A stretch of 59,277 nucleotides of DNA, counting the filler, from Bipalium vagum (Eukaryota): NCBI GenBank assembly GCA_037834085.1. It is 3 parts of 3 records of this genome, joined end to end, with 100 filler letters (N's around TTAATTAATTAA, not from the genome) between each part and the next. Parts side by side here need not be neighbours in the genome. Positions count along the whole stretch, not along the records: positions 1 to 18,457 come from JBBMKC010023028.1; 2 more parts are not named here. The stretch is one strand, 5' to 3'. The notes under the pieces are model-generated. The model was not told the origin of the DNA. It searched no databases and was given only the letters and a program-made list of their open reading frames with translations. Position numbers and translations under genes: made by a program. Below, piece by piece: positions 1-59,277 of this stretch (position 1 is its first letter; every line of letters begins with the position of its first letter).

Positions 1-908
1 TAGATAAGAAACTTGAGGATATAATTATTGAAAATATTAATAATAGAGTAGACTAATGAACGAAATTAAACATATCATCAATATTATTACGCAATTTTCC
101 ATTATTTTATTTATGTTATTTCTATATTATTTTATTGTTATATTTTATTAATTAAAAATTTTTGAAATAATAACAGTGTCAGAAAATGAAGTAAAAATAT
201 AAAGCAAAAAAGAGATTCTAAAGAACATCCAAAAGTCTAATCTAGTATAATACATAATAATAATTATCTTTTGATATTTTGTATATTAAAATTATTTTAT
301 TAAAATAATTTATGGCTAAGAAGTAATGAATATGAAATGATGATATAAAATTCCGTTAATAGAATTTTTATTTTTTTATGAATTTAATATATTTATTTAT
401 TTTTCATTCTATTTATTATTAATATTTATTAAATAATAATTAGTGTAATTTGTGAAATCAAGTTGAGAAATATGAAAACAAAACAATTTTCTCCAGACTA
501 ATCTTTTACACTTAGTAGTCTAATAAGTTACAGAAAAAGACAAAAAAATTACTACTTATTTTTTAGTTAGAGTTTTAAAATAATTATATATTAATTAAAA
601 TTTAATCTACTTAAATTTTAGGTTGCAGAAAATTGACAACTGAACATAAAAATTGAATAAATAAATTTAATTAATATGTACTAAAATTATTCACAAAAAT
701 TATTCGGATTTTATATATCTTAATATAAAAAAAATCTGTGCTAATAGATCCAAAAGAAATTGAAATATTTTATATTTTTTTATAAATTATAACTGATGGA
801 AAAAAATTATCAAAGGTTCTTTGAAATTCATCGGAATAAACTATTTAGATGTTTGAAATGGGTATAATATGAAATATTTTATGAAATTTTAGAAATAAAT
901 TTTGTCCA

Positions 909-2377
909 GAGAGTCCACCAGCAAAATCCAGACAAGGTTTGTTGAGATATTGTGAAACAAAATTTAATTAATCTGAATTTAAGATATTTTTAAACGTTAA
1001 TAAATCTGGATTTTTTGAGAATCATAATAATAGAAAAAGTGACATCCGAATTTAATTGAAGAGTGGCAGTAATGGAAAGGCTGCAAGCTGGAATGTCGTC
1101 TTAGAAAATTATTGGGTTGGTTAGAAAGTTCGTGCGTTATTTTAATATTGAATTTGTAAATCAAATTTTCATAAATTAATCATTCAGTTGTTGTTTAAAT
1201 AATATAATAGTCTTAAGCGATAATTAAAATGTTATTATGGAAGAAAAAAACTGCATTTTGTCATATTTTTTATTTTGAAAAGGGTAAGTATTATATTATT
1301 TATAAATATTAAATTAATTTTAAAAAAGTTAAGCGCGCCTCGGATGGACATAGGGAAATATGTAAAGTATTATGAGATGATGCTTTATGAATACGATTAT
1401 GCAAAAAATGGTTTGCCAAATTCAGTTGTGGAGAATTCGATATGAACGATGCATCCCACTCCGCACGCCCTTCTCACTTTGATCCAAACCCTATTGGATC
1501 ACTGTTGAGTCTATTATCGAAAGGAATCCATTGAACACGGTTCGGGAAATCGATAATAAAGATATCGCAAAGAACGGTAGATAAACATTCAGGGACGATT
1601 AGTCTGGTAGAAGGCACATTGGCACTTTTTTCTGCCAAACAACCACAGTAGTCCTACGAACGTGACATCATAAATTTGGCGGAAAGATGGAGAAAAATCA
1701 ATAATAATAACGAGGAGCATAATAATATAATTGATTAAAAATTTTTTTAACAATAAAATATTTTTATTTTGTCTTTTCATTAAAAGTCGCACGAACTTTC
1801 TTGCCAACCCAATCATTTTTCGGGTATTCATGGTTCACCGTATATTTCACAAAAGTATTCTACTTTGGATATTTCCGGAGAAGATCCTGCTAATTCAGTA
1901 AGGATTATTTTCTGCAAGCCTTTATATGTGTGTTGTTTCAAGTGAGGGTAAAGTTATGTCATCATATTTCTTTGAATCTGGAGAAAACATTACAAAGGAT
2001 ATCTACCTTGGGGTTCTGGTGTCAACAGTACAACTTTGAATCACTGCTCCAGATAGTCCAGATTTAAATCCTTTAGACTATTTCGTATGGAGAATTATTG
2101 AAGGAGTTTCTAATAAGTCCAGCCATGCCAATAACTCAGATCTTCAAGCAGTTTTTGTGACAGAATTTGACAATATAGAAGGCAGCAGGTAACGAAAACA
2201 TGTTTACGCTTTCGGCAAAGATTATAGGATAGAATAAACTAACAAAGAATAAACTTACAAATCTAGAACTCTTTAATTAAAACATTATTTTATTTGTTAC
2301 ATTAACTTATTTTTTCAAATAAATCTTGGGTAGATATAATTTTGTTTCCTTTGTCCGGATTTTGCTGGTGGACCCTG
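909..2377 (+). mobile_element. Decayed, internally deleted maT/DD37D-type DNA transposon, interrupted by a nested mariner
   Basis: Terminal inverted repeats (TIRs): 909 GAGAGTCCACCAGCAAAATCCAGACAA vs reverse complement of 2351..2377 CAGGGTCCACCAGCAAAATCCGGACAA, followed by TA. Transposase remnants: KVTSEFN*RVAVMERLQAGMS..KI|SFFGYSWFTVY across the nested insertion, VVSSEGKVMSSYFFESGENI, and APDSPDLNPLDYFVW. Confidence 0.8.
1112..1812 (+). mobile_element. Internally deleted mariner (701 bp) nested in the DD37D element; transposase N-terminus contains a putative 45-nt intron
   Basis: TIRs TTGGGTTGGTTAGAAAGTTCGTGCG (1112) and CGCACGAACTTTCTTGCCAACCCAA (ends 1812). Frameshifted N-terminus MEEK.LHF.HIFYFEK[G]...KRASDGHREICKV..DDAL..RLCKKWFAKFSCGEFDMND. 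Confidence 0.85.
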
Positions 2378-5300
2378 TATAAATTGCATCATATTGGAAA
2401 CTTATAAAATTGAATAGAACATGTTTTGATTTCAAGTCGATTTTTTAATTAAACAATTGTCAGCTTTTAACTAAAAATGGAATATATTAAATGTCAACGA
2501 AAAATCGTAATTCTTATGACTGAATTCTCACTTGGAATTAAAAACTGAGGAGTTCAAAAATTAAAATATCAATTTTGATTCTGTCTGTATTTGAATATTT
2601 TTATAAAAGTTACCAAAAAAAGTAATACTTTATGAATTATTTTTATTTTTCAGAGTCTTCATAGAATTATTTTTATGTAAATCAGTACAACATGGTTTTG
2701 TACTTGGTTAAATTATTTTAGTTCTTATAAACGGATTTTGTTTCAATTCACGAAATGTTGTTTCCTGTTTATTCTTCTTACCTTAAAGCACATGATATAT
2801 TCTCGGAAAATGTTTATAAAATAATGCATGTACAATTTTTATTTTTTCCTCATTTTAATTTTTATTAAATAAAATATTTGCAAAATTGACTTTATGGTTT
2901 ATTAAAATATTATTATTCAATTAAACAAAAGAACATTTAGAAGATCGAATTTAATCATCATCTCTCAAATTTGGACCTCTTAAGTTAATGAATCAGTTTA
3001 TCGAGATTTTTTCTTTTCTCAATGTAACAACGAGATTTCGGAAGTCTGTAGAGTATTCTTTTGTCTTTTTACCCATTCAAATAATCAATTCGGAAATAGA
3101 TTTAGAGATCCTATGAAAACCTTGTAAAGCTATATAAATTAAAAATCCCTTACGTTTATTTACACAAAATAAAACGTTAAAAAAATATTTTTTTAAGATT
3201 AAAATGCTATTTCATAAAAGGTCAAGGTCGTACGAATAATTTTTGTATATTAATAATCAGAAAAATTCTAATTTAGAAAATTTAGAAATTTTCATTATTA
3301 AAAATCTACACCAACCTTAATAAATAAACGCATTAATAATGATAGTATTATAAACGCCGAAAACTTTTTAATACTCGTTGATTTTCTTTAAAAAATATAT
3401 GTTTCAAACATAAATGTAATATAATATAATCATACGGATAATTCTTGGAGTAAGTGTATATGTTTGATTTATAGCTTAATATGATGATCATAGCAACAAA
3501 TTTAAAATTGACAAGGTTTTGCACAGGAAAAATAAAGAAAAGGAAAATCTTCGATGTATAATGAAAAATTGAAGTAAATTGAGTATATAAGAAACAACTT
3601 ATAATAAAAGAGATTTACTTATTTTCCGAGGAATCTTGGTTTCATTGTAAATTTTGAAAGGAAATTTTTTCAGGTTTCCCGGTTATAATCTAAATGTAGT
3701 TACAACATTCTAATTAGAATTAGATAATTATCATTGTTTTATAATGGTTTTTCCTATGTTGAGAAATCTATCACTCGATTTTGGATCATTTGGCGAATGG
3801 TAAGACTCCAATGGGTGAATGACATTGAGACAGTGAGTCTAAGTTGACCTTGAAATCGTGATAGTGGACCTAAAATTCAGAAATTATGGTTGTTTCTGAA
3901 GAATAGCATGTTCAGGGCATATCGCAGTTCAGTCTAGTCCGACATAGAGTCAGATCGTAACTAGTTACCACGATATCAACGAAAGCTTATTAAAAGGTTT
4001 TTTGAGGCTTCGCAAGATTATTATAAGGACCAACCTCATCATTTATTTTATCAAATTACGTAATACATATTTTAAAAATATCTTCAATTTTATTACAATA
4101 TTTAATACTCTCAATTAACTAATTAATTATGTGATCACTTGGGTTTGTTTAGCTTATATTATATTATATAATATATATATACTAAACAAACGTGTTTCTA
4201 ATATTTATTACCATTACATCGTTCCAATCATGTAACCATCTCTTTATCTTCAGTTTTCTCTCTGAAAGACCATTGGTCATTTTATCTGCATCGTAATTTA
4301 TAAACTTGAATTAATACTTTTAGTATTTTTAGAAAATATGTCTACCAGGTCCATCTGTACACTATTTCCAACCATGTCTTCGTTAACATCAATCCTATTC
4401 ATTGAAGTGATAATTCGTCAGCTACAGTAAGAAAAAGCAGTAAAAATAATTTCTGAAAAATTTTCATGAAAGTTGCCTATGTTGTCGACTACTGTATTGA
4501 ACACCTTTCACTTTACAAACTATGCTTTCGGGGAAGTTTACATCTGAAAATATAATTTGCAACCATTTCAAATCACTATTACACAATAAGTAGTTTTTTC
4601 TCTGACTTTACTACTGAATCTGTAGACCTGTGACATCCAGCATTATTTTACGACAATCATTATGCCTCATTTTATGATCTGTAAATATACAGCATGAGAT
4701 GATTTACCAAACATCAATTCTATTCAAGATTTTTTATATGCTTATTTCATATTCAATATATATGTAGTTAATTTGGACATAGTTTTACACCTTACTTTTA
4801 GTACACCTTTTCTTGCACTCATTTTATTTAATCACTTAAAGTTTTTTGGTAAGATGAGGCCATTATTTTTTAGTTTCCATATCTTGATTTTTACCATTGT
4901 TAATATGTTAGATATTACCTAAGCGTCTACGATCTGAATCCACAATATTATAGTTGAGTCCCTATGAAATAAGCAAGCCAAAAGGTCCAAAACATTTATT
5001 AAATCGATAATTACAATACATACGATTAATCACAAATGTCTAGTAGTTGTATACGACTGTCAACACCTCACCAGTAACTATGTCCCACTCATATCTTTAA
5101 GCAGTATTCAACTCCCTCACAAAAGAACCAATGTTATCAAACTTAAATAACATAAAATGAAATCAAATAAATGAGATAACGAGTAAATGGATTATGTTCA
5201 AACAAAATCGAATAAACTAATGAACATAAACATTATCTAGTTCCAACTTCAGCTCGCTTCCAATGAAGATTGCCCAGGCATACAAGAGCATTAGTCACTC

Positions 5301-5937
5301 TTCACAACTCCATAGGAACTAGAACACAACACAAAAGGTCATGTCACTCAATAACATCTCTCATTTATTTTTATTATCATGAATAGCCAATAAGTTCTGA
5401 GAGATATTTTTATATATATATATATTTAATTTTTGCTATTAAGGCCAACAGTTCAGAGTTGATTAGTTCAGACAGCTTTCATCAACGGTTTTCCTTCTGT
5501 TTTAAGGCAGACGGGAAATAATTCGCTCAAAATTTAGACCTAAAAATAACAAACTAAATTCCCTTTGCCTTTCAGGAGGAAGGAAATTAATCAATTTTCC
5601 CCTAATCCTAATTGGAGAGAATATTCTCTCAAAAGTCACGCTTCTCGCTCAATTTTCATTATCTTAAAAGCCATACGCTAGCATTAATTGAATCTTATTC
5701 ATTCAGTACAGTTACATAATTTACGAGATTTGTTTTAATGAGAGTTTTTGATGACTAAATATAATCTTTACATGTCAATAGCCACATCCCCCGACTAATT
5801 TTCAATTTATCTCACAAGTGCTAAAAAGCATTTTTATTTGTGTTAATAAAAATTAAGTTTTTTCGCGTTAATCGCATAATGTATTTGTATTTTTTCAGAG
5901 TAAACAGTGTTTATCAACGTAAAAATCTTATATTATA

Positions 5938-7211
5938 TTGGGTTGTTCAAAAAGTCAGTGCTTTTTTATTGCACACTTTAAACACATTTATTTAATATAA
6001 CAAAAACAATATTAATCTATTATGTATTCCCCGTTTTGATCAATTACCTTCTGCCATCTCTGTGGTAGCTTCATTATTCCTCGCAGATAGAAGTCTGCGT
6101 TTTTTTCTGAAAAGAACCTCTCAAGGTGCTCTTTGATAAGACCCTCATTACTAAATGCTATACCATTCAATGAGTTTTGCAAGGAGCCAAACAGATGGAA
6201 ATCGGAAGGGGCAAGGTCTGGATTATAGAGTGAATGTGGCAAAACATCTCACCCAAGGTCGAGCAATTTTTGGCGAGTGATCAAACTGATATGTGGTCTT
6301 GCGTTATCGAAGTGGAAGACCACCCCCTTTCGATTGACCAGCTCAGGACGTTTCTGTTGGATAGAATCGCTCAATCTCTGCAGCTGGTCACAGTAGATTT
6401 CCGAATTTATAGTTTTATTCTTCTGGAGTAGCTCGTAGTAAACAGGTCCCTTCCAATCCCACCAGATTGAAAGCAAAACCTTTTTCTGGTGAATATCTGC
6501 TTTTGCTTGTCTCTCAAGCGCTTCATCTTTTTTAGACCAGCTTCTTTTTCTGTTTACATTGTTGTACACGATCCACTTTTCGTCGCCCGTAATGATGCAC
6601 TTAAGAAATGGGTCGATTTCTTCGCGGTTCATGAGTTGATCGCACATGTCAATTCTATTGATTTTGTGAATTTTTTTCAATTCGTGCGGGACCCAGACAT
6701 TCAATCTTTGGATGAAACCAGCGGACTTTAATTGACCGTAAACGCTTCCAAAAAAAACGCAATTTCTCTGACCGTCGAGTGTTTATTTACTTTCACGAAA
6801 TCCGTAATTGTGTCGATGTCAACCATAGAAGGTCTGCCAGACCGATGAGCATCTTTGAAGGAAAACTTTTCTTCACGGAAACGGGTGAATCACTTCTGGC
6901 ATTGTCTTTCTTTAATGACACCTTCGCCATACACTTTCACTATTTTCTTTCTTGCATCAGTGGGATTTTTTCCTTTTTTGAAATAAAAAAATAAAATATT
7001 CCGCACATGTTCGTCAAAGTTCTCAATTTTTGAAACCCTATAAAAACATGATAAGTTTAAAAAATGAAGGTCAAACTGTACTTACATTTTAATTTTTAAT
7101 GTAAATAAACAATCAATTGTAAATATTGATATATAGCGGTGTATATTAAGTAAAAATTCTCAATTTATCAAAACTACTAAAAAAAACGCACTGACTTTTT
7201 TAACAACCCAA
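5938..7211 (-). mobile_element. Near full-length mariner (DD34D) element, 1274 bp, pseudogenised transposase
   Basis: About 30-bp TIRs (TTGGGTTGTT(C/A)AAAAAGTCAGTGC) with TA on both flanks. ORF fragments carry WVPHEL, ITGDEKW, FHFDNARPH and YNPDLAPSDFHLF. The ORF has frameshifts and an internal TGA. Confidence 0.95.
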
Positions 7212-7261
7212 TATATTGCTAGTATCGGTAAAGAAGGTTAGCTATCAATCAACCTGTTATA

Positions 7262-7425
7262 TTTATAATGTGAGACCAGTGAACTCAGAGCTACCGGAAT
7301 AGGAAAAAATGATAAACCATGAATTGTATACTTTAAAATTGGCCCTAGCAAAGAAAAATTCTGAATTGATTAGCAGGAAAGGCGGTATTCTTCATGATAA
7401 CGCAAAAATGCACATTTCAAAAATG
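7262..7425 (+). mobile_element. Small degenerate mariner transposase fragment
   Basis: Remnant ..KKNSELISRKGGILHDNAKMHISK resembles the RK.VI..HDNA.PH motif. Confidence 0.55.
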
Positions 7426-8992
7426 AATTAAATATAAATGAGAAATTAAAATAAAATAACTTTATCAGTTAAGGTAAAACATTTAAAAGTTTAAGACATG
7501 AAATTTGATCTCTAAATCTTTTTTTTATATTGCGAAAATGACTAATCCTATTCGAATGGAATTCATTCGAAGAGTTATATTGAAAATATATAAATGATTT
7601 TTTGTTTTTTTGTTAATAAATAAAAGTTTGATTTTGATCTAAAATTTTCTTATTACTTTTCCTTCAGCCATAATAAACTTGTCTACTATCTAGCAAATTA
7701 ATAATTTTTATCGAAGTTTTTTCATGAATGATGGTTTTTCCTGAATCAAAACCCAATTCTACTTTTAAAACTAAATATAAATTCTGAAAATGTAATTTAA
7801 TATTTAAAAAGAAATGAATTATTTTTTCAATAATTATTATTCTATTGACAAACCTTTATAAAATAAACATTGTTATTCTATCAATGAAGTATCCTAAGGA
7901 TACAAAGAATATTGCAATTTTCAGTCATTCTAAAATAAACTTAGTTTAAAATTTTTTAAAGATTATAGAGAAATTCAAGAAATGATCAAGCTTGGAAGTA
8001 TTGTTTTGAAAAATTGCGCTGGAGACAAGCATAAATTTACCGATTCCTTTCACAGTACTATTTGTTTTGTTTAGAAATTAAAAATCTCTATTATTCCTAT
8101 TGATTTAAACAAAAATTTCCATTTTTATAAATATTTTTTTAAAATTAAAATTATTAGACAAAAATCCTTTTATATTTAATTTTTTTTGCTCATTATTAGT
8201 TGAAATATTACTTTTGATTTTATAATTTTCATTTTAATAAAAAATAGATTAAGATTTATTATTTAGTCTTTTAACCAAATAATATTGACAATTGTAGCTT
8301 AACAAAACTCAGAAATGAAAAGAGAATAGATTTAAATAGTTTATTCGATATTTCTTACAGGATAGAATTTTATCTATCAAAAAGCTTTTTTAAAGCTTTC
8401 CAATTTTCATAATCAAAATTGTAGAATCTCCTTATAAATTATAAAATATAAAAATTACGAACAATCTCTGATGTGTCAAAGATTGTGACTGAGAGATAAT
8501 GGCATGGATGTTTAAAATAAAAGTAATTTTTGTTAAAATATTGATGAAAAAAACATTTAGAGTACTTAAATAATGTTAAAATTCTCAAATTTCAGCTCAA
8601 CTTGTGAAAGGAACCGAGAAGAGTTTTAGAATATTTGCTAATCATTCTATCCTATAAGAACCCTCAAACACCATCGAAGTATAAAATATGAAACAAATTT
8701 ATATGTAAGCCTTAAAAAATATGGACAGAGGAGGATGACAATTCAATGATCTTTACATTTCATTATCAACAATTATCGATAAGTCATGAAAATAATATTA
8801 AACAAAATATTCAATACCAAACAATTATTTTCATCAATTTCGAATATGGTTCAATGGAATTCGTCGAGTAAGACTTTCGATCAATAACAACCGATAAATA
8901 AATAAATAATAAAAATAGTTCATTTCAATCATAAGAGTCAACTGATAATATGAAAATAATTATTGTGAATAAGTCAGTGAGTATTACAAAAA

Positions 8993-11638
8993 TCAAATAG
9001 CAGGCGGCTTCGGCCAGTGCTTCTTTATAACAACACTTGAGAATGATGTCGAACATTCCCAGTAACTTTCGCACTCTGGATAAAGCATTAATATTAAGAA
9101 TAATGAAAACAAAACGATCAATAAAATGGGGATCAATATTAGTAAAAATCGACAAATCAGCCTAGACCAAGACCTTTGAGCGGAAGGATTTTCAAATTCA
9201 AGCAATGGCGGTGACGAATTGACCCGTTCAGATAACAATCGTTGATTTTCAAAATGCGATACAGGAGTAGTCACATTCGACTTGTTGATTCTCTGTCGAA
9301 TATTTAATTCACAAGGCATTTGATCATCAGGCACGATAGGTGCAACACAAGACTGTTCAAAACTGTTAATAGACGGTACCAAAAGACTAGAATTGTTCAT
9401 ATTATCTTCATCATAATCATCGTCATATTCATAATCGTCATATTTCAAAGATGGAAATATCTGGATCAATGCTGAGGTATGGTCATCATCGTCGATGGGG
9501 AATGGTTTCAGTCTGATTATCAAAGAGGAAAATTAATCGAAACAATATAATTGGAAAGACTGATCATGCTTTTCCATATAATCACAAATACATGCATCTT
9601 GGTACACTAATAGAATGAACTCTTAAAATATGAGCTGTGAAAAAAAAGAAAGTTCAGTCTTTTGCTAAGAAATAACGATTATAATTAAAGTTAAAGATAT
9701 TTAATACTTTATTAAGGTAAAAGGATAATTTCAAAGAATATAGGCCTTTACTATGTTCAAGTATTATTAAAAAAATAATCATAATTATGGAATAAAATAA
9801 CACTTTCCGAACTCTCTGCATAGAATATCATGGGATATTTTCTAAAAATTATCCTTTTACTAATAAACAAAAAAATTTAGTCCAAGTTCGGTATAGTTGA
9901 ACAAAAGTTAAAGAAAACAAAATTATACATGGTAAATATAATATAAAAATTAGTTAGAGTTGATTTATCATTTTTCCTTATTTTTTTAAATTTCAAAATA
10001 CTTAGGAGGAAAACTGAATTGGATAATCTTGAATTAAATCCTTTTTTAAAGTAAAAAAGATCAAGCTTTGAAAGAAAATCAAGTGGATCATTATAGAAAA
10101 GAGAAATAATCAAAATGGAAATAGTTAAAAGAAAAATATACTCAAAATCATCAGAGCTCATTCAAATCAGATAAATAAAGAACCAGACCATCAGTAATAA
10201 TAATTGCCAATTTAATTAAAAGTCCGGTTTTTTATTATAATATTTAATAAAAATGTTTGATAATCAACATAAACTATAATCCATTTATATCTACCTCTTG
10301 GATTCATCGTTTCGCAAGCGCTAAATATGATAAAACAAGCAAATAGTAATATTGTCTAATAATAAAATTATAAAGAGATATTGTATTATAAAAAATTATA
10401 ATATTAATTTTATAATAATAATAATGGTGTATATGTACAATTATAACCTTAAGTTAGTCACAATAAACCATTCTGACTATGCCATAATAACGTCACATAT
10501 CACAAATAATAATAAATCAATAAAAATTATATTTTATCTACTTTATTATAATAAATTTATCAAAAATATTTCAACATTCGATCACGAAACCTGCCAAAAT
10601 TAATTTTAATATATTATATTGTAGTATAAAAGAAAACGGACTCGTTTCATATGAAATCAATCTTAATTAAATAATATAATAAATATCTTTATTAGAATCG
10701 TTGTTGGTATTCAAGAAATTTAATCTAAATTTATTGTTTTAATAAATGAAAAAAATTATAATAATTGAAAGTTTATAAGAATAAATTAAAATGAAAAAAA
10801 ATTTCAGAGATCCAAGCTCACATTTTGCCTTTGCTGTCAAAAAATTACCAGAACATTGAAAATTTCTAAAGCTATGTATATTGAAGTAGAATAAATAAAT
10901 AAATAAATATAATCAGATATTTAAATATGTGCTATAAAAAGTAATTATCTATTTATACAGTAAAACAAAAAAAAACTTTCGAGTTAAATTATTAAAATAT
11001 ATAATGTCAAACTTTGGATTTCGCAAATCCGATATTTCATACTTAATGATCTAATACTTTCAATATTGATTTTAAGACAATGGACAATTGCATTGTTTAA
11101 TATATTACAATCGATTTTACTAATAAACGTTATATTATTTTTTAATATAATGTATTTGAAGAAGATAGAATTATTTTATAAAAAAAATTTATTTATTGAT
11201 TTATTAAATTGTTTTTCTCAATGACTGAAATTTTTTGACTTGTATTAAAATTATATTATTATGTAAACTGAAATTAAAATAATTAGATTTATATAATTAA
11301 AATCAAATCCTATTGATTAAAATGAATTTTTTAGAAATTCCCACCAAAAAGTTTATTAAATTTGTTTCAGACACAAATTGATCAAAAATTCTAAATGTGG
11401 AGGCAGTTTAAAGTGCATAAAATCAATTCCATTTGGAGAGAAGAATAATAAAAAATATAACATTTCCACCAGCTTAATACTCATTATTTCCAAGTAAAGA
11501 AAAACAAAATTTTTTCTCCAAACCACCATCAGATCTTCAAATCACAAACTGACTTTCAAACAAATTTTATAAGAATGTTATCTCAAATTTTAAGAATGAA
11601 AGCTATTTTGGTTTTATAAATTTTTCAATTGAAAAAAA

Positions 11639-11695
<57 letters not shown>

Positions 11696-14600
11696 GTAAT
11701 AATAATAATAATGTATTATTATTTAAAAGATTCTCATATGTACAAAAAGAATAATAGATAATGGGAAGTAGAAGAATAAGTAGAAGAATAAGTAGAAGAA
11801 TGTTAAGAATTGAGAAAAATAACAAAAATCAAAACTGTTACCCATAAATCTGAGTCGACGATAATCTTCGATATTTTTAACACAGTTCTGTCCAGCTGCA
11901 TCAATTCATTCATATTTTGGTCGATCTTTTCAGTCAGTTCATGGTGCAGCAGAGTCACATTATGATTATTAAAACTCGATAGGGGGCGAATCTTGTTTTT
12001 CCAATACATTTGTTGTTCTTTGACTACATCAAATTTGTCGATGAAAGAGTCTGACAAGATAGCAATGTTTTTCAATTCATTTTTCAAGAAAAGAATCTGA
12101 TTTATGACTTCTGAAACTTCTCTTCTAACTTCAGGGGAATCGATGACAATCTGTGAAGTTTGAAACAGTTTACATATTCGTAAAATAATTTATCTGAAGT
12201 AAACTTAATGTCAATAAAGTTTCAATATAAAATCTCCAGAAATGTCAATGGACTCACCGGAAACAAATTACAATTCCACAATGCTTTGGCAAGCAGTCAG
12301 ACGTTTATATTTTTAACGATGATATTGAGTATTCAAAAGCAATCACTTAAATAAAAGGAGTTTGAAGATATTCGAAGAAGTACCTTCGAAATCAATCTCC
12401 AACATAAATAACAGATTTTTCAACAAAAATTATTTAACTTTAACAATTTGACGAATGAATTAAAAGCTAAAAGTAAACATTAAGCAATAATATTAGTTTT
12501 TCTTTTATTTCTTTTATTCATTATTGTATGATTATCAAAATGAAATAATTTTTCAGCAAAATTAGAAGATTATGAATTTTTATAAAAAATAACAAGATCA
12601 TGGAAATCTTTTTCTGTCTGAAGATAAATTTAATTGATTTTATAATGAAACTTAAATTAACCAATAAAGGCATTAACAATTTCATTAAAAGAAAAAATAA
12701 ATGTCTAAGGGTCAGCCATATATGACAACAGTCATAATTGTAAGTTTTCATCTTAATTTGATCCCACAGCCAATCTAAAAATCAGTGGGGTCAAGAACCG
12801 ACTGATTTTTATTTATTTTACATTTGATTTAGGTGAATTTATAAAAGTTCTGTGAAATTGTGGCTTAAAAGCCAAGCTAAAGAGATGTACGAAACCAATT
12901 TCAGAGTAATAAAATATTACACAAATCAAGTAGTTAAACCTTCATACCTTATCAGACATCATTAGTTGATATCTTAAAATATCTTATATCTGTATATAAT
13001 ACAAAAATTATACCATTAAATTAAATAATTAAATTTCACAATATATTTTATGAAACATTGAAATAAATAATAAAGAGGTTATGATTACTTTTAATGAGTT
13101 TTTTAAAATCGGAATGTTTAAAAACTGAAATGAAAAACATTATTATATTAAATTTTTGATATTTTTCAAACCAAAAATGTTTATGAAATTATTACACCAT
13201 GATAAAACAAATATATTTTTCAAATAATAATAAAAGTTATAATAACATAAAAATAAACTCAAACTATCCATTTAATCATACAGGGTGCTTCATAAATATT
13301 ATTGATTATTATTTGCTTTAAACGCCTATACATATTTATGAAACACCTTGTATTTGCTAAACCTGTAATATGTACCCATTTAAGAGAACAAAATATAAAT
13401 ATAAATATATATAAAAAGTTAAAGATGGTGACATTCATGAAATTACATGGTCAAAATAAGACATATAAAACCAATTTCTGAATGTCTCGGAATATTTCTT
13501 TAAAAAGATTCGAAAGATTTTCTATAAACTCTTGATAATTTTATTGCAACAGAATAATTGTGATTTTCTCATTTCCGTCTTAATTCCTCATAATAAACAG
13601 AAAGAACAGGGTCCGGAATATTTCTTTAAAAAGATTCGAAAGATTTTCTATAAACTCTTGATAATTTTATTGCAACAGAATAATTGTGATTTTCTCATTT
13701 CCGTCTTAATTCCTCATAATAAACAGAAAGAACAGGGTCCTCCCTAAAAAAACCTAAAAAAAATTTAAATCTAATGATCTTTAAATAATTTTCACTCAAC
13801 CAGTATTAAGTGAAAAATAATAATAATTATTTTTTGCAGAGAATAATAATTAATGCATTAGCCATAATTAACGTATTGTTTTTCCAATACTGACGATATT
13901 TTTACTTTAAAAGACCAGATATTGTGTCTAATAATAATTTAACTATACTTTCATGTAATATTAGAAAAAAATCTAAAGACTTATAAAAATTAAACATACA
14001 TTTTGCATGTTTATGATCCACAGTTCTAATATTTTTGTTAGATCTTTCCACTGATCTACTATATTATTAATCGTAGTAGACAATACTCCTTCCCGAGCTA
14101 TCACTACATTGTTGAAAATTTGATATCTATTCGTATAGTCCTTTAAAAACAGATCCAACGATTCAAGCTCTAGCTTGATACGACTGAGTTCTCCATTAGA
14201 AAGTTTTGACATATTTATGAAGTCAGATTTTGGCTGCACAATTAACAGTGAATCTTTGATCCACTGTTCTAGAGACAGTATATGATCATTGATTAAATCA
14301 GATTTCGCAGAAATTTCTGAAATTCCATAACTGTTGGTATCTTCAAGCGACTGCTTATTTGAATCAAATTTTGACTGAAAATTCTTATCTCTTTCAACAC
14401 AACGAGCGTACGCATTATTCCATCTATATTCGATTTCTGAATTTAATCGGTCAATAAGCTAAAATTATTGAATATAAAATCACCCCGGACAGCTTCATGA
14501 GAATAATTTTTCAAATCAGGGATATTATTCTCTGCCATTAAATGTTCTAATTCTGCTTGCAAGCCCTTAATGAGATCGATCTTATATCGACTGGCAATGA

Positions 14601-17600
14601 TTACATCGGTCTAGAAATTATTCAATATAAAAAAATTCGAAGAGGAAAATTTTCTATTACAAAAGAATTAAAAACTTTCGTATTATCTCCTATCGCTTCA
14701 AAAACAACGGACTTGATGTCCGTTGCCACCGATTTCAACAGATCATTAGTCCAGTCCAAGTACTGATTGACACCGTCAATATTTAAGTTTAATTCTTCGA
14801 CTAAGGCATTGGCAGTTCTATTAAATAATTTCGATGGAGAGTGTGATTTGAGAGGCGATTCTCTTTGTGCAGTCTGAATCGAAGACAATAGAAAATAGAA
14901 AAATCATTTTATAAAATTAACTATATTAGAATTTTTTGAAAGTGAGTTTTATTATTATTAAAATTAATACATTACAATTTTTCAAAAACAAGAGGGTTTC
15001 TGTATTTCATCTTTTACCTTATTCAACACCACAAAAACAATTATGATAAAAATGGAACTATGATAGTTACAAGTTATTTCTACTATAGGAGTGAAATTTT
15101 TACACAGGCTGAGGTAGGTTGACATTTCACCTAGAGTGAATAGTCAATAGGAAAAATTGATTCCTTTCTCATGTCCTGTATTATTAGAAAACCACTTTTG
15201 ACGAATCTTGCTGCAATATATTCTTTAATATGTGACAGGGATCTTCAACAAACTGCAATTCTCATTTATCTTTTAAGTCTGCGTCAATTGCGTACTCTGC
15301 ACACTCAGCCTGAATAATACGTTTTGACGAAACTGCATGGTTTAAAGAAATATCTCGAAGTTCTTGGTAAATATTTGGTTCGCGATGATCTCCTCCTTTA
15401 TTCTCTTTGCAATAATGCCATCTTCAAATTTCTGAACAATATTTTTGATGACCAAAAAGTTTTCCGCATAGTATTTTGCAGCATTGATCCAACTAGCCCA
15501 TCTTGTGAAAATTGGTTTTCGTGTTTCAGATGGGTCTTGTTTCCTTAGCATTATTTTTAGCATTAGCTAAAATAATGCTATAGAAACAAGGCCAGTCTGA
15601 AATAAGAATCGCTCTAGACAATGATTTTTAAAAATGTTAAGCGTTTCACGATATCTGCAATAACAACACTTGGTGTAATCAATTGATTATATATCGAGAT
15701 CAGTGATGTCCTTTTTAAGGTAACGTAGCTTTATGAATACTCACATAATTAAAAATGTATACTGTGAAATATTCGGGTCCAAAGATGATATTTGATATCA
15801 TTTAGACTGATTTTCTTAAATAAAATGAAGATTAATTTTTTTGAAGTTCTCAATAATTTATTTAGCAGTTTTAATATGTAAATTTCTAAATTTTAATGAT
15901 AAACCCATTAAACTAATAAGAATTTCTCTAAAAATTGACATTATTCTTAATATTTTAAAGTTACCTAGCGTACTTGATGATTTGTTAAAATCAGAATATC
16001 TTAACAAAAGTACCAAAATTACAGATACGAAAATATAATAATATACATAATTATTATATAGTAATATTGAAATAGAAAAATTACCTCGAGTTTTGTTAGA
16101 GGCAAAGTATTGATTTGGAAATCTGTTTCAATGCGGGAACTTTTGGTAGAAAAAAATAATAAAAAGATAAAAAAATGATTTTACAACCTTTTCGTTGTCG
16201 AACGAATGTTCTCCCTCAGTCTTGCAGACAAGTCGAGAATAACCTTTTCACTTTGCTTAACTTTATCGACAATATTCGCATACTTTGACGAGTCTGAATT
16301 GGTTTCATTCCACAAAGATTGGGTTTCAAATTCAATATCTTGGAGAAATTTCAATTGGTCGTATAAAAGCTCTTTGATTTCCTTTAAAATAATTTTAAAA
16401 AATTTAATCCTCCATTTCTCAAGTCAAAACTTACAAATAGTTCTTGTTTTCTAATATTGGAGTTGTTAAGCTGACACATGTTTACTAAAGAGACCTGTTC
16501 ATCAACTTCGTGTATCCAGGATTTGATAGCCTGACAACAACTTTTCAAATGCATCTTTATATTTAGTAGATTTGTCATTTGGGTAATTAAAACGGTGCTC
16601 TCCTCTCGAATATTTTCATATTTATTTTTGAGATTCTTCACTTGTTTTTCAATCTGGCCATTATTGTCCAGTTGATCTTGCTCACTCATATTTTCAAACT
16701 GATCTACAAGATTGTAGAGTTCCAACTCATACTCATCAATGTCAGCTTTTAATGTCTAAAGCAAGAATAATGAGCATATTAAAAATTTTTAAAGAAGAAA
16801 GTACCTGAAGGTTATCAAGAGATTTCTCTGGATTTTTATCAATATCCCTCACGATATCGTTTAATCGTTCATCAATCTGCTTGAGAAACTCTTCCATATT
16901 AGAAATTTTGGTTTTCATATCTTGCCAAGCCAAGATTATATTGTTAAGCCTGGAAATGAAAAACTAACAACTACAACCTTCATAATGAAACAATTTTAAT
17001 CGTTTGACCTCTAAACCGAAGAATATTATAAATATTTAGTATAATTTCTTTCAGAAATATAAAATCATACAATTCTACTTGAAAATTTCCATCCATTATT
17101 ATTATAGGGAAATATTATTAATATTAGTTCATTGATTTATTTAAATATAATTCAAAAAATCAATCAAAATATAATCTTATTTATTATATTTAAAATTATA
17201 CCTTTTTATTTTTAAATTCGCTCGATCGTTAATATTTTTCCATCGTTTCTTCAGTTTTTTATGTGTTTTGGAAATTCCATCTTTCTCATTGTAGCTGGGA
17301 CAAGCGTCTGCATTATGCACGAGCAAATTGCACAATAAAAGAAGCGATTCAACATCTCCACTGCGATCTTCTATATGTTTGCATTGGTTCTGAAAAAGTG
17401 ACGACCAATATCCCAGTTTCTTCAATGCAGCAGATTTTATTGAAACTTACTTTGATATGTTCTAATTGTTGGATTGGAATATCAACTTGAAATTCCTGTA
17501 GCTCTACTGCAGAACTCAGATTATTTTTCATTTCTAGCATCCAGTGTTTCAATTTAGCACTTTTTTCTTCGAAACTTCCAATGGAATCAAAAATGTCCTT

Positions 17601-17823
17601 CAGTTTTTGCAATCTTGACAAAAGTAAACAAACCAATTCTCATTATGAAAACATACTTATTTTTAGCCAATGAATTGGCATAGGTCCACAGATCTTCAAA
17701 CTTTTGAAATCGATAATTGATATCTTTGATTCGATTGTCCCCACATCTTTGTTGAATATCAATGCCTCGGGATTTTAGGTTTTTAAAGTTAAGTTGAAAT
17801 TGCTCAATTTGTGGAATTATTTC
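8993..17823 (-). CDS. SYNE1: Nesprin / SYNE-like spectrin-repeat outer nuclear membrane protein, 3' portion only, ending in TM + KASH-like tail
   Basis: Manually spliced in-frame exons: 17823-17657, 17613-17451, 17389-17202, 16949-16805, 16755-16435, 16381-16188, 16139-16085, 14873-14661, 14610-14484, 14436-14000, 12150-11842, 9460-8993. All are GT-AG; the last acceptor and possible extra exons in 9.5-11.8 kb are uncertain. HIEDRSGDVESLLLLCNLLVHNADACPSYNEKDGISKTHKKLKKRWKNI resembles a C-terminal spectrin repeat of nesprin-1 (recalled: DIEKHSTGVASVLNLCEVLLHDCDACATDAECDSIQQATRNLDRRWRNI). The C-terminus has a TM helix, then a 29-aa tail ending PKPPAI*. Upstream exons were not resolved; an assembly spacer lies at 18458. 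Confidence 0.85.
11641..11712. repeat. (AAT)n microsatellite in nesprin intron
   Basis: Directly visible; a 3x AAGTAGAAGAAT repeat follows at about 11766-11801. Confidence 0.95.
13281..13350. mobile_element. 70-bp Tc1/mariner-type MITE
   Basis: TA|CAGGGTGCTTCATAAATAT ... ATATTTATGAAACACCTTG|TA; TIRs match at 17 of 19 positions; TA target-site duplication (TSD). Confidence 0.85.
13488..13739. repeat. Tandem duplication of a 126-bp unit (13488..13613, 13614..13739)
   Basis: The two copies are identical by eye; this produces the repeated peptide in ORF 13532..13747. Confidence 0.95.
15190..15720 (-). mobile_element. Degenerate hAT-like transposase fragment in nesprin intron
   Basis: PIFTRWASWINAAKYYAENFLVIK resembles the TRW motif region. 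A decayed VERSxS-like dimerisation motif lies near 15230-15260. Confidence 0.6.
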
Positions 17824-18457
17824 CTGAAACCAAGAAAAAAGGGCATGACAAACAAATGTATCCCAACAATTAATCAACTACTTCAAAGGTTTTTCATACT
17901 TTTGTTATATCATATCAAAAAGTATAATCTGATTAAGTTGATACAGCTCAAACTCAGCAGCTTATCTTTAGCAAAGAACGAAAGAGAAATTACCACTGAT
18001 ACGATTTAAAGTGATTGGTGTTGTTGTTCGAAACAATTGTAAATTTTTTGTCAATCAGAACGAATTTGATATAATTGTTCAAAATTTTTTTTATATGAAA
18101 TGAATATTTGTATGCCAGGTCATCAAAAAAGTTTCCGGAGTATGTTAATGAACAATGAGTATGAACAATAAATAATAAATCAGAGGTAACTTTTTTGAAA
18201 TTACAAATTGCAATCACTGTAAGGATGTTATATTAAATTAGAATCTATTAATAACACAACAAATATTTATTACTAACACATCTGGCATGTTATATATATA
18301 CATATATATATTAATCAATGACATTATGAATCACCACTATACTTTTAGTTTTTGTTTGAAAATGTCATGAAAAAGTCTCGATATATTAGGTTGTCCCATA
18401 TGAAATGTCCGATTACGTAATATACAATAAAAGCAATAAAAGTCCAATAAATTCAAA

Positions 18458-32532: not shown

Positions 32533-35074
32533 TTAGGTGTAAGCATAATTTTTAAACAATATTTTCATCCTTGTTTTACTAATCCAAATATATATTATCA
32601 AATAACTGCGGCGAAATTTTACATGGGTAATCAATATATTAATTTTATAAATATATTAATTTTATATAAACCAAAATATCAGTCTTCAAAATGAGTGATG
32701 AAAAATTGTACGTTCGGTGTTGTATAAGATACGAATTTGATCAAGGCAAAAATGTATACCAGGCATTTAAATCAATATGTTGCGTTCTTGGTAATAATGT
32801 AGTTTCCCGCAGTACATGTAAATACTCGTATCGTCGATTCAAAGGCGGAAATTTTGATGTTACCAATCGACCACGTAGTAGTACTTCACAGATATTGGAA
32901 TCAGCCAAATTGGAAGAGCTGCTGAATGAAAATACGGCCCAGACGCAAGCAGAATCGCTAAAAAACTTGCCGTTGATCAAAGAATTGGTGGGAGACGGTT
33001 ACACGACATGGGAAAAATTCAGAAGGATGAAACGTGGATTCCGCACGAACTTTCAGAAAGCAATATTTTATGCTGATTAACAGCATGCGCATACCTTTTT
33101 GCTAGACAAATAAACAGAGTTTCTATGGAAAATCGTCATTGGAGATGAAAAATGGATTAATTACAATAATCCAAAACGCAAACATTCGTGGTTGGATCCT
33201 GGAAGGCAAGCTACTTCAGTTGTCAAAAAATATTCACAATAAAAAAGTACTTCTTTGCATCTGGTGGGATATGAAAGGACCCATTCATTATGACCTCCTC
33301 CAAGCTGGTGAAACCATTAATGCGGAACGTTATAGCAAACAATTGCTGCATTTGGCTAAACAAATAGAGAAAAAAAACCTTTTTTCGGGAAAGGATCGCG
33401 TAAGATTGTCCTGCTACGTGACAATACCAGAAAGCCTGTAGCGAAACATACTCAAGAAACAATTTTACAGTTAGGCTGGGAAGTTCTTCCTCACGTGGCT
33501 TATTTTCCAGACCTTGCTCTTACAGATTTTCATTTGTTTCGCATAAATTAGCCTGGCTGTCGTTTCAAAAATGTTTAGCAAATACAAGTTTTGTCAAGAA
33601 TTATCTTGTGTCGAAATCAATATATTTTTATCGTTCTGGGATTCGACAATTATCTGAAAGATGGCAAAAAGTGATTTCCAATAATTGATAACGGGTGGCC
33701 AATAAAGATGATAATTCTTTGAATGACGTTTGACATAGACAGCATAATGTTAAATTAACTCAATTAAAAATATTTAATAAAGAATAAAACCAAAATTTAT
33801 TTAATTAAAACAGTTTATTATTAAACCTCCTTTGTGCCTGTCAAGGGCCAAAACTCTTTGTCGAAAGGAATCGATGGCTTGGCGAATCATATTTAATGGA
33901 ATTTATGCAATTGTTTCTTTAATTTTTTCAATCAGTTTTGTACGATTTTCAATTTTTTTTGTTTTCAGTCTATTTGATACTTCATCCCAAAAGAAATAAC
34001 CAAGAAGACTAAGATCTGGTGAATTTGGTGGCCAATGATTTGGAGCTATTATCGAAATACCAGTCTATTTGAATGCCGCAATAGTTTCTTTGCTTCTATG
34101 ACAGCTAGCACCTTTCTGCATATATATAAAATCGCTTCCAATGAGCTCCATTTCATATTCTGCAACGATTGGAAGTACACTTGATATATAAAATCTTGTA
34201 TCAAAAGATGTTTTTGTCGGTAAGAATACAGGTTTCATCGGACCCTGATATGTCCAACCCATACTATCACTTTCAAAGGATATTTTCTGTTTGGAAAAAA
34301 ACCACTTTAAATTTTCATATTTTCTAGATACAGGATAAACGACGTCGTTTTGTGGATTAAACTGACCATCTACATCAAAAGATTTTTCATCACTAAACAT
34401 AATTTTGTTCACTGCCTGTTTACTAAATCTTTTTTTAACCAACATAAGCACGTCTTTCGTTTATTGATTTGGGACTCCGATAGACAGGGAACTTTTATTT
34501 TCTAGTAGCACTTAAATCCCAAGTCTTTATGTATAATATTCCCAATAGTTCCTCTTGAACATTTGAAATCTAAAGCTAACTTTCTAGCTGATTTCTTTTT
34601 TTTGTTTGTTGTAAAGTTTCTGATAATTTTTTTGATAAATGTTTTCGTTTTACGGTTCTTGGACGTCCAAGGGAATTTTGAGCACGTAAAGATTTTCCCT
34701 CTTTTATTAGTTTAGTCCATCTATAAATAGTGGAATTTGATATCGTTTTTGCTACAGCTTCATAAATTTCATCCAGTGTTTTCCCATTTTCACAATGGGT
34801 TTTTCTCAAATTTCTTACACAGCTCTCATACGTCATTATCTAAAAGAAAGTATTGCTAAAAATAACGTATGTTTATTTTGCAAGATATTAAAAACCTTGG
34901 CATAAATTAAATCAATTAATAATTCAAATTTAAAATTTTTTAGTTTAAAAATAATCCGTTATTATGCTGATGACTTATTTTTTGAATCCCTGTCGTATAA
35001 AAATACAAATATTACTTTAATAACATTTAATTTTTTTTTTAAAAAAATGGGCTAAAACTTATACCTACACTTAA
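32533..35074 (+). mobile_element. Mariner (DD34D) element; pseudogenised transposase 32691..about 33688, with a DD37D element inserted at its 3' end
   Basis: Degenerate TIRs TTAGGTGTAAGCATAATTTTTA and reverse complement TTAAGTGTAGGTATAAGTTTTA, with TA flanks. Motifs: [35 protein letters not shown] and RWQKVI. Confidence 0.9.
33691..34995 (-). mobile_element. maT/DD37D-type element nested in mariner; decayed transposase (ATG 34836)
   Basis: FSDEKSF, then Q[K for D]GASCH, then 37 residues to the [G for D] in WPPNSPDLSLLGYFFW. The TIRs match poorly, so the ends are approximate. Confidence 0.85.
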
Positions 35075-50689: not shown

Positions 50690-52460
50690 AAAACAACTAA
50701 TTGTAAATCTTATAGATATAAAAAAAGTTTGTGATATTTGTAATGAAGAATATTTTAAATCATATCAACATAAGTGTGGTTATAAAAATTGTCCAGTTTG
50801 TAATGAACAATACAAACCTCATTTCAATAATCACAAATGTTATTTTAAAAAAAATATTAAAGAACATTTAAACAAAGTAATAAATATTTATTTTTTGATT
50901 TTGAAGCTACTGAAGAAAATACTGATTATCATGAAATGAATTATGCAATTGCTTAAGATTCGGAAAGCAAAATATATTTTAAAATACAAACAAACATAAT
51001 ATCATATTATAAACTTAGTACTGAAAATTTAGAAAATTTAACAATTGAAAATATTTTAGATAATATAGAGTTTTTAGAAGAAACAATAATTGAAAACTCA
51101 ATTTCTTTAATTGATACTTTTTGTAAATTTTTTATTTGTAAAGATTTTGAAAAATATACTTTTATAGCACATTATGCAAAAGGATATGAAAATCATCCAA
51201 TATTAGGTTGGTTAATTCAAAATAAATTGCCAGTTGAAAAAATTAGCTCAGGAAGTAAAATCAGATACATGCAAATAAAAAATTTTAATATAAGATTTGT
51301 ATATTCAATAAATTTTACTTTATGTCCATTAAAATCTTTTCCAGAAACATGTGGTTTTAAAAGTTCCAAAGGATATTTTCCGCATTATTTCAATACAACA
51401 AAAAATCAATATTACATTGGTAAATATCCAGATTTAGAATTTTATGGTTATAGTTATATGAGCAATAATAGTAAAGAAAAAAATTATTAAAACAATGGCA
51501 TGATGAAAAAATACTAAATAACGAAATATTTAACTTTTCCAATTCAAATTTTTTATTATTGTTTAACAGATGTTATGATCTTAACTAAAGGTGGTTTAAT
51601 TTTTAGAGATATATTTTTAAATATGTTACTATAATCTTTAGATGTAGCAACGTGTGGTCGTGACACCTCGCTTTTTATAAATCGCTTTAATAAAACATAT
51701 AAAGTTGATGGTTTCTATTATGATGAACAAAATAAAAATTATTATATTTATAAATTTAATGGCTGTTATTTTCATGGCTATTTTTTCAGTTTAACATGTG
51801 ATCATGATTGTAAAAAAGATAATAATAATTGTAATACAAAAATTGAATTTTTAGCAGAAAATATTGCTTATGATTTGGATATTGATAATATTAAATTTAA
51901 TTCTGATTTAAGATTTATAGCTAAAATTTGTTTAGTTAGTTTATGGGGACATTTTGGAATGAGAGATGATTTTGAAAAATGTTAATGTCTATAATTATAA
52001 TGATATTTATAAAATAATATTCGATGACAAAATTAAAGAACCAAATCCAATTTTTTTAAATGTAGAAGTTTGGATGATGAAATATAATATACAAGAAGAA
52101 AGGAAAACACAAAATAAAACTACAAATATTTATATAGCATTATTTACAACTGCTCATGCTAAAGATTAAGATTATACAATCTTTTAGAAACATTAAATGA
52201 AAGAGTCATTTATTGTGATGCTGATAGTACAATATTTATTGATGATTCTTGTGAAAATAAAAATTGTTGTCATGAAGAATGTATGCCTGTTAGAAAAATA
52301 GAAAAATTACAATGAGAAAATTTAGGAGATATAACAGAAGTTGAAAAAAACTATGGGATTGGATCTTATGTAACAAAAATACTTGTACGTGCTCTAAAAG
52401 ATTATCATATGGAAATTTGGAGTACTAATAAAAAAGAAATAGATACAACTGGTAAAACAA
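50690..52460 (+). pseudogene. Protein-primed DNA polymerase B of a Polinton/Maverick (adintovirus-like) element, decayed
   Basis: Cys-rich N-terminal part, then YFFDFEA, FIAHYAKGYE, KGYFPHYFN, YCLTDVMIL, YKVDGF...FNGCYFHG, IAKICLVSLWGHFG, TNIYIALFTTAHA and VIYCDADS. It has stops, frameshifts and deletions. Confidence 0.92.
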
Positions 52461-52479
52461 AAAACTGGTAAAAAAAAAT

Positions 52480-52618
52480 TTCTTACCTGGCATATTAAGA
52501 TTTCTCTACAAAATATAATTAAATCATTCATCAAAATTTATCAATAAAAAAATAAATAACTAAATAATAAATAACTAGGCTTTTTTACATGGTGGCCAAA
52601 GACTTTTGGCGGGGACTG
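52480..52618 (-). mobile_element. Isolated 5' end of a Tc1-like element
   Basis: TA|CAGTCCCCGCCAAAAGTCTTTGGCCACC on the minus strand. ATG CCA GGT AAG AAA lies about 125 nt inside. No partner TIR found. Confidence 0.55.
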
Positions 52619-52949
52619 TAGTATTTTAAGAAAGACAAGGAAATATAAGACAAGTGAAGATTCGAATATCTGACAACTAAAACGAGGCTGTGGCACCACA
52701 TACACTGCCAAATGGGCTGAACAGGCCCTGAAAGACATCAATTTTTTCATCTGAAAAATCAAATTAATAAAAAATGCTACTTATTATAATAAGTAATATA
52801 ATAAATATTTTAAATTTTAAAAAAGGTTTTTCTTAGATTACATCTCATAGAGAGCTTCTTTGAAGCTCTAAGACTTCGTCTCTCTGCAGTTCATTCTCAT
52901 AAAATCTGCCCAATATTTTTTCTCCATTTAAATCAATAATACCATAAAA

Positions 52950-53590
52950 AATTTTGATTTGTGAAAATAATTTCATTTATAATGAACATTTCATTTGTCC
53001 ATTTAGATTTATATCCTTTTTAAAATTTATTTTTGTATTTAAAAATTCTTACATGATCTCCAATACGATATTTTGGTTTAGCACTTAAAGGATTAAGATT
53101 TTCGTTTTCATCTTTTTGAATCTTTAACTTTTCTGGACTAACCGTAGGCTCAGCAAACTTTGTTGGACTGGTCGGAGTCCTTGACAGCTTTGCTGGATCT
53201 TTACTTACTTCTGTTTGGAAATACCAATTGAATTATGAATTTTGTTGTTATAGAAATTAATTAATTTGGTAGAAGATGTAACCATTTTCTATTTCCCGGT
53301 TCCGTAAATATGTTAAACATTAAAATTTTTAAAGTTCTATTAAATCTTTCAATGACAACTGCTTTTCCTTTTTTCTCTGTTGAATAGATTTAATTATCAT
53401 CACAAAATTCTTCAAATATTTTATTATAAAATTCAGTACCTTTATCAACCAAAAGTTTTTCAGAGCCCTATTCTTCAAATATTTTTTCAAACGCATCTGT
53501 AATTATTTAACCTGTTTTATTTTTTAGAAGAACAGCGAAAGCAAAACGAGTATATAAATTGATAACTGTTAGAATTATTTTGTAATCTTT
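52950..53590 (-). pseudogene. Polinton-type retroviral-like (rve) integrase, decayed
   Basis: ILTVINLYTRFAFAVLLKNK, LLVDKGTEFYN, KAVVIERFNRTLK, YNNKIHNSIG and KPKYRIGDHVRI...FKKGYKSKWTNEMF. Confidence 0.9.
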
Positions 53591-53649
53591 TTTTTAATTT
53601 TTCACGAATGAGAATTTTTGCTTTTTCAGAATTTTTCATTTGCCACATT

Positions 53650-54075
53650 TTTACTTGCTCTTTCTAATCCTAATCCTGGAGCTATCTTTCCTTTGATTAT
53701 TAATTTTACAATTGGCCTTTCAAGTTTTTCTCTTGGAGTTTGATTTTGAATATTGTTCATTTCATGAATATATTTCTACATCTGTAATATGTCAATATTT
53801 TAAATCTGTTGACATATATTTGACATCATGTTTCATTGCTGCTTGATCAACTCGATTTATTAGAATTGAATCAGGTTTTGGAATTCAGAGAATTGATAAA
53901 TCTTGATTTTCATTATAATTTTCTACTATTTCATTATAATTTTCTAAACGTTTATCAACGTTTTGTTCCAGATCCAGCAAACTGGATTTGTTTTATTTAA
54001 AGGATTTAAAGATTTTAAATGTAATTCACCTGGGTATTTTCCAGTTGTAAATTTATTAAAAAATTTATTATTTGT
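53650..54075 (-). pseudogene. Parvovirus-VP1-type phospholipase A2 domain protein of Polinton/adintovirus, decayed
   Basis: GELHL ... FAGSGT ... RL ... INRVDQAAMKHDVKY: the GPG-like loop and D..A..HD..Y catalytic motif. Confidence 0.75.
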
Positions 54076-54450
54076 GATTTGTGATTGGATGTCAACTTTG
54101 GGAAAAATAATTGGAAATTTTTCTTGAATATTTTTAATTTTTTCATTAGTCGTTGTTTTTATTCGTAGATATCGTTGATTTTTCGTTGAAATCGTTGAAT
54201 ATTTTTTTCATGTATTTTTGTATCTTCATGATGACTCTTATTCTTTTATTAAAAGATTTATCACAAATTTCACAATACCATTTTCAACCATTTTTTAGCG
54301 AATTTTTTAGTGATTTTTTTGAACTTAAAAAATATATATTTGTCCCCAGTACAATTATTTTTTTTGATTATTTTTTTGATTATTTTTTAGTGATTTCTTT
54401 TGTAATTTATATGACTTAAAATGTATCTTATATTTTTTATATTTGTATGA

Positions 54451-54659
54451 CACAAAGTGTACTCCGTTTGTCAACATATTTTTTACAAATAAAAAAACCC
54501 TGGATTTTTAAAATATATTTTTATGATTTTTTATATTTTTTCTATTTTTAGTAATTTTGTATAATTATTTTTTTGTTGGCAAAAGTATATTTTTAACCTA
54601 TTTTTTAAGTTTGTTTTTGTTCCTGAAAAAAATGGGGGATAAACGGGGTACACTTTGTG
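54451..54659. mobile_element. 209-bp MITE with CACAAAGTGTAC termini (Transib/Chapaev/CMC-like; family unresolved)
   Basis: CACAAAGTGTACTCCGTTTGTC ... GATAAACGGGGTACACTTTGTG; no clear TSD. Confidence 0.8.
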
Positions 54660-59261: not shown

Positions 59262-59277
59262 TTTATTATGATTATTA

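Follow-up and report, generated by a model that had tools for sequence, protein, structure and literature searches.

A mariner transposase remnant in the genome of Bipalium vagum is interrupted by 45 nt that start with GTAAGT and end with AG. The question raised by this locus is whether the insert is a spliceosomal intron and, if so, how a transposon came by it. The window analyzed here is a stretch of 59,277 nt (assembly GCA_037834085.1); all coordinates are positions along it, and positions 1-18,457 come from JBBMKC010023028.1. Judged from sequence, the insert is a candidate spliceosomal intron, probably gained recently through a duplication and an A/T filler. We put the probability of this reading at about 0.68, because the contig matches listed contain no insert-free helper, an extra loop at this site is tolerated in none of the relatives and the length equals that of the host's short intron class.

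The element that carries the insert lies nested in a second inverted-repeat element (Table 1). It is flanked by TA at 1110-1111 and by TC at 1813-1814, where other copies have A at 1814, and, like a DD34D mariner, it has short inverted repeats at its ends and a duplicated TA target. The N-terminal mariner helix-turn-helix (HTH) is recognized by PF17906 (HTH_48) at 34.7 bits against a cutoff of 24.1, and the A1 profile matches SETMAR and Mos1 chains. The copy is heavily decayed. Small deletions near 1255-1268 frameshift the first coding segment, and the second, which is 51% identical to residues 16-78 of the intact relative L001, contains stops and frameshifts. The catalytic domain is lost from about residue 90-110 to 290-300, including the D,D34D triad region, whose spacing is 34 in six intact relatives, the closest among them. 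A word-index protein search with the exon-2 fragment returned no match, and scanning viral contigs for the pattern of the split site gave 0 hits. The leader of the focal family (1112-1236) measures 125 nt, about 58 nt shorter than the 179-185 nt of relatives, with the gap aligned directly after the left inverted repeat. The outer element (910-2376) contains a decayed transposase-like remnant near 1902-2190; it has no Pfam match, and we read its SPDLNPLD motif as a sign of a transposase.

Table 1. Coordinates of the insert, its surroundings and the host gene used for comparison.
Feature	Position	Strand	Basis
Second inverted-repeat element, mariner nested inside	910..2376	.	arms 910-935/2351-2376, 26-nt
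Internally deleted mariner copy between inverted repeats	1112..1812	+	arms 1105-1136/1788-1819, 91% over 32 nt
5' UTR stretch, reverse complement of insert 1289-1302, possible filler template	1196..1209	+	14/14 exact
First coding segment, ATG to G of Gly codon	1237..1283	+	helix 1 of HTH
Direct repeat copy 1, over donor (12 exon + 5 insert bases)	1272..1288	+	junction comparison
45-nt GT-AG insert, candidate intron, phase 1	1284..1328	+	sequence, copy survey, relatives' spacing
A/T-only filler between repeats, 28 nt, imperfect hairpin	1289..1316	+	12/14 pairs with majority letter
Direct repeat copy 2, over acceptor (12 insert + 5 exon bases)	1317..1333	+	junction comparison, contig majority letters
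Second coding segment, remaining HTH_48 and beginning of second HTH	1329..1606	+	PF17906, E 2e-08
C-terminal ~40 codons	1607..1735	+	aligns to L001/L002 residues 302-342
Vps35 host gene	36946-46870		12 introns, 802-aa open model

The insert ends in AAAAAAG and holds 3 G/C letters in 45 (7%, against 42% in the next exon). It splits a Gly/Val codon after its G, within the F-x-K-G-K turn of the first HTH. The first-pass annotation held that removing the insert restores the spacing of this turn, and it does: the focal copy then reads F-E-K-V-K-R-A-S, and with family-majority letters the junctions become G|GT...AG|GT and the product reads F-E-K-G-K. When all donors in 1270-1299 were combined with all acceptors in 1305-1344, the 1284-1328 skip was the sole GT..AG skip that stays in frame. 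As in a U2-type intron, GT...AG ends with a donor consensus are present and excision restores the homologous protein. By itself, a GTAAG with an AG 45 nt on is not rare (3 of the 61 GTAAG sites in the window); what lies beyond chance is the exact location in a conserved turn together with the presence across copies. TTAAT occurs 11-15 nt before the insert end, such words being frequent in A/T DNA, and a pyrimidine tract is absent. Searched for in the window with up to 2 mismatches, as would detect an introner there, the insert sequence matched only itself. In-silico removal of GT..AG segments gave the best profile gain in the focal copy at 1284-1328 (+7.4 bits), which was not counted because most control loci also gain 3-15 bits from arbitrary skips. 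The removed and retained forms of the insert differed only as 81.3 vs 79.5.

Comparison with relatives suggests that the insert is derived. In the three other mariners of the window the turn is contiguous, as had been claimed, reading FKKGKNP (6982, -), FDQGKNV (32736, +) and FTKGINA (25772, -). Related mariners were collected from 62 metagenome loci, in 47 of which helix 1 could be placed (it could not in the other 15, nor in the frameshifted focal copy). None of the 47 had an extra 30 nt or more between helix 1 and the WF motif, and in 41 the spacing deviated by no more than 9 nt from the standard; as a control, the test retrieved a planted insert from 10 of 10 loci. Since many of the 62 loci are near-duplicates from few data sets, independent lineages number far fewer than 47. 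At the protein level, 54 of 102 usable hits (of 150) had a recognizable first helix; the spacing was 38 in 43 of 52 relatives and at most 46, an excess of 8 residues. The closest intact relatives, L001 and L006 (342 aa, D34D), are contiguous, and L010, L012 and L018 read AAA GGT AAA at the insert site. The comparison with insert-free sisters thus rests on relatives that share 72-78% DNA identity over matched segments, all of them contiguous.

Copies of the focal family were surveyed in contigs of a single run (X1), which may itself be the source of the window. The element is matched by 720 contigs at 80% likeness, and 47 contigs continue into unlike flanks behind 1813, at the right repeat, which shows that the family has many insertions. 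The region 1236-1400 is covered by 154 contigs, with A at 1282 in 45. Position 1329 is G in 17 contigs (depth 347/574) and A in 4. Letters other than G at 1284 were found in 13 contigs (14% of depth), as at other G sites of decayed copies, and substitutions at 1285 or 1328 were absent from those listed. The insert is present in dozens of contigs from this mariner family, and the majority letters give it G|GT...AG|GT boundaries. The first-pass annotation had named two findings that would speak against its intron reading, an insert private to this dead copy and an AG missing from other copies, and neither turned up in this survey. Being common to copies, the insert sets the family apart from the single intronless transposase gene that characterizes mariners.

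Insert-free copies were sought in the same contigs. No joint within 1236-1400 was listed at a 5% share. At a 1% share, a 45-nt skip was absent from the 15 of 51 joints and the 12 of 155 indels listed. All of the best 8 of 156 pieces cross the insert, with length differences of -1 to +17 nt from the reference and none 45 nt short; these 8 are the longest ones, a choice that favors pieces spanning the insert. Among the contig matches listed, no insert-free copy was present at a likeness of at least 80%, at a resolution that could hide less than 5% of depth. The insert is thus the main state of the family, and a rare insert-free copy may exist. Depth as a measure of copy number was rejected, as depth is higher on the insert than on its flanks, where chance matches to A/T sequence may contribute to the insert's count. 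Contig depth also drops sharply at 1320-1330, the 3' end of the insert, and several joints begin there, running from 1321-1326 to 1500, 1515, 1738 and 1744; these are either deletions starting at the A run or alignment breaks.

The two boundaries of the insert resemble each other, and the repeat is longer than first claimed. With majority letters its core comprises 17 nt (12 + 5) with one mismatch, and a G at the mismatched position is present in apparently 5 contigs. Matches across the junctions amount to 16/22 in the focal copy and 19/22 with majority letters, compared with 4-8 in 12 host introns, and the anchored match was reached by 706 of 100,000 interior shuffles. Translated in frame, each repeat copy gives F-x-K-G-K. 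When the insert core was aligned locally to its own exon end without anchoring, the match was not significant (1863/5000 shuffles), so the repeat claim depends on the register at the junctions. A tandem duplication of the full 45 nt was rejected, with only 8 of 23 positions matching further upstream. The origin of the repeat bears on what the ends can prove. Splice-like ends are indeed present, with the AG kept, but as evidence for an intron they are weaker than had been implied: duplicating any AG|GTAAG stretch gives GT..AG ends, which are then no independent proof of splicing.

A possible source of the A/T filler is suggested by an exact reverse-complement match in the 5' UTR. Such a match was reached by 881 of 200,000 mononucleotide and 303 of 50,000 dinucleotide shuffles, and real A/T 28-mers matched their own flanks equally well in 3 of 105 cases in reverse and in 11 of 105 in either direction. 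Templated end-joining leaves reverse-complement matches of this kind together with fold-back. Templating of the filler in reverse from the 5' UTR is suggestive only. The 3' end of the insert resembles the exon end of L006 (81/5000 shuffles), but this was the best of 9 comparisons, and derivation from an L006-like exon end was not established.

The length of the insert was compared with introns of the host Vps35 gene, which measure 44, 45, 1072, 1582, 1943, 863, 43, ~1412, 55, 242, 60 and 152 nt. Three of the 12 fall at 43-45 nt and five at 43-60 nt, which bears out the claim of a host-like length; in both length and composition the insert lies within the range of this 12-intron sample. An AAG acceptor is found in 1, possibly 2, of the 12, and A-rich ends in three. 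In a quick tree of 32 rows, the window's Vps35 protein grouped with four flatworms (SH-aLRT 96); the 31 other rows were chosen from 119 hits and include no named nematode or free-living flatworm.

Other features of the window were recorded alongside. A second mariner (~5937-7213, -) has a 48-nt GTAAGT...TTTTTATAG stretch at 7038-7085, ending 10 nt before the probable start, which is ATT here and ATG in relatives. Its leader of 184 nt compares with 179-185 nt in relatives, so the 48 nt are not extra length, and the stretch is either a candidate 5' UTR intron or chance. A third mariner has, just upstream of its ATG at 32691, about 56 nt that begin with GT, end with CAG and contain an internal repeat (~32627-32682, +); this stretch is possibly a leader intron. 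A multi-exon gene at ~9000-18000 (-) encodes long helical repeats, a hydrophobic terminal segment and a PKPPAI tail; we take it to be like a nesprin/KASH protein, and its last exon has no Pfam match. At 13488-13740, 126-127 nt are duplicated exactly in tandem, which may be an artefact of assembly. An inverted repeat pair of 187 nt spans 49591-50117, and frames at ~50600-54700 seem to us to resemble a protein-primed DNA polymerase B with an integrase-like piece, presumably a Maverick/Polinton-type remnant. The frames at ~55800-59277 are presumably those of a decayed LTR-retrotransposon-like gag/pol.

Returning to the insert, its splice-like ends could be a mere by-product. It could be a repair scar that is not spliced, carried by a non-autonomous founder which a transposase without the insert multiplied in trans, an account we consider unlikely. 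An AG|GTAAG duplication yields GT..AG ends by construction, the focal copy and many others are internally deleted, and a full-length insert-bearing copy was absent among the contigs, which are short. However, a trans-acting helper should be a close relative of the copies it mobilizes, and the matches listed held no insert-free copy at the 80% level. In addition, the joints show several different deletion end points, and in 9 contigs the sequence behind 1552 continues as shared, coding-like DNA, a sign of a longer ancestor. The length of the insert also equals that of the host's short introns.

The reading frame of the insert raises a different possibility. The in-frame TAA that retention creates, put forward in the first-pass annotation, is real in the focal copy (1310-1312) but does not hold as a family trait: position 1312 is T in 58 of the 154 contigs (depth 2370/2882), giving TAT. 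With majority letters the insert is in frame, stop-free and reads as 15 residues, and the argument that the family must splice to make protein falls. An active transposase might then contain the insert as a tolerated loop of 15 residues, with splicing rare or absent. We regard this as decidedly improbable. Filler shuffles were stop-free in 6859 of 20,000 cases (34%), so no selection is required for the open frame. The filler is free of G and C, and the relatives compared lack a loop of this kind. Translation would place a Tyr/Ile-rich peptide within a tight turn that SETMAR and Mos1 have without interruption.

That the insert is instead a long-standing intron of a host-resident mariner lineage, its repeat a chance likeness between A/T sequence and splice consensus, is very improbable. 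In its favor, the unanchored test was negative, and the nearest named proteins, the ant transposases EZA53808.1 (Ooceraea biroi), XP_018376647.1 and XP_018400177.1, are only ~50% identical, so that the gain cannot be dated. The 19/22 junction likeness against 4-8 in host introns and the in-frame F-x-K-G-K of both repeat copies argue against it.

The preferred reading is thus a recent intron gain, which may have proceeded as follows. The Lys-Gly-Lys codons of the founder element would already have read AAG|GTAAG. A staggered break or slippage could have duplicated about 17 nt around this site, and repair would have left the 28 nt of A/T filler between the repeat copies. The upstream copy would then have served as a consensus donor and the downstream copy as the acceptor AG, at a spacing that falls in the host short-intron class, and the host spliceosome may have accepted the product. 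Excision by the host would bring back the F-E-K-G-K turn that joins helix 1 to helix 2 in the DNA-binding domain. Early on, incomplete splicing would have been tolerable, since the insert keeps the frame and holds no stop. With the insert in place, the family presumably multiplied and decayed afterwards; the focal copy, with its stops, frameshifts and missing catalytic domain, displays such decay. Against the intron reading stand the open frame of the unspliced majority message, the rarity of AAG acceptors in the host, the missing pyrimidine tract, the ends supplied by the duplication itself and the absence of a full-length insert-bearing copy among the contigs.

A more elaborate version of the intron reading, which we hold to be improbable as a whole, combines three proposals. 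The retained and spliced forms might constitute a switch, the spliced form giving active transposase and the retained form a dimer-poisoning protein with a disrupted first HTH. The family might have spread because the intron protects its transcripts from a host silencing that acts on RNA without introns. Mariners resident in flatworms might gain introns repeatedly, trading horizontal mobility for a host able to splice 45 nt, and the 48-nt stretch in the leader of the window's second mariner might be another such case.

The element is like DD34D mariners of the mellifera-type clade in its short TTGGGTTG-type inverted repeats, TA target, HTH_48 and ~50% protein identity. We assume that the family belongs to the mellifera subfamily, a label taken from repeat likeness and from the ant relatives rather than from a tree. 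Within the wider superfamily, introns occur in Tc1, Tc3 and plant DD39D elements, and Minos, usually classed as Tc1-like, is a further case. Mariner-like elements are described as having "a single intron-less gene" (PMC3158080). The focal family, with its gene interrupted after the G of a Gly codon in the first HTH, is unlike the elements so described and would be an exception among true mariners. A literature search of titles and abstract openings, outside Repbase, subscription journals and supplements, found no report of an intron in a DD34D mariner transposase, and such an element may be on record in those other sources. The word 'intron' is absent from the main text of PMC7325037 and PMC2041818, and passages of PMC8664452 deal with host introns. 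The weight of the exception is limited, as splicing is read from sequence and other superfamily transposases are known to have introns. An element with a 45-nt intron would be bound to hosts capable of splicing introns this short, which may bear on the interspecies mobility of mariners.

Minos of Drosophila hydei is reported to have a two-exon transposase with a 60-bp intron and 254-bp repeats (PMC2874221). The focal element is like it in being a Tc1/mariner-superfamily transposase split by one short intron. It is unlike it in that Minos splicing is established, whereas here it is proposed, and in that the Minos repeats are 254 bp. The P-element likewise has an intron within the transposase frame; it belongs to a different superfamily, and its germline-specific intron is described as gating transposition, with retention truncating the protein (PMC6719617). 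In C. elegans and in human cells, introns are also reported to impede silencing (PMC5554785, PMC8770142), and such shielding would be a testable benefit for the focal element.

With respect to its origin, the insert resembles reported new introns of Daphnia and Drosophila. The Drosophila Bap170 intron has a 16/18-bp direct repeat at its splice sites (PMC2809761), and new Daphnia introns are flanked by direct repeats (Li et al. 2009, as cited in PMC2809761 and PMC3296678). In these accounts, repeats around a filler of unclear origin are interpreted as break repair or tandem duplication (PMC2809761, PMC3296678). Repeats of at least 5 bp are, however, no commoner at gained introns than at conserved ones (19/77 vs 26/100; PMC3296678). 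As in the Daphnia and Drosophila cases, a direct repeat overlaps both splice sites here, with filler between. New Drosophila introns are reported to tend to contain stops (PMC2809761), whereas the focal insert is stop-free in most copies. Those cases also lie in host genes, whereas the focal insert sits in a transposon that has copied it many times. Because the traces of an intron's birth decay, clean examples are scarce; here the transposon copied the event dozens of times, and the majority letters thus keep the boundary repeat and filler near their first state, against which duplication and repair models could be tested.
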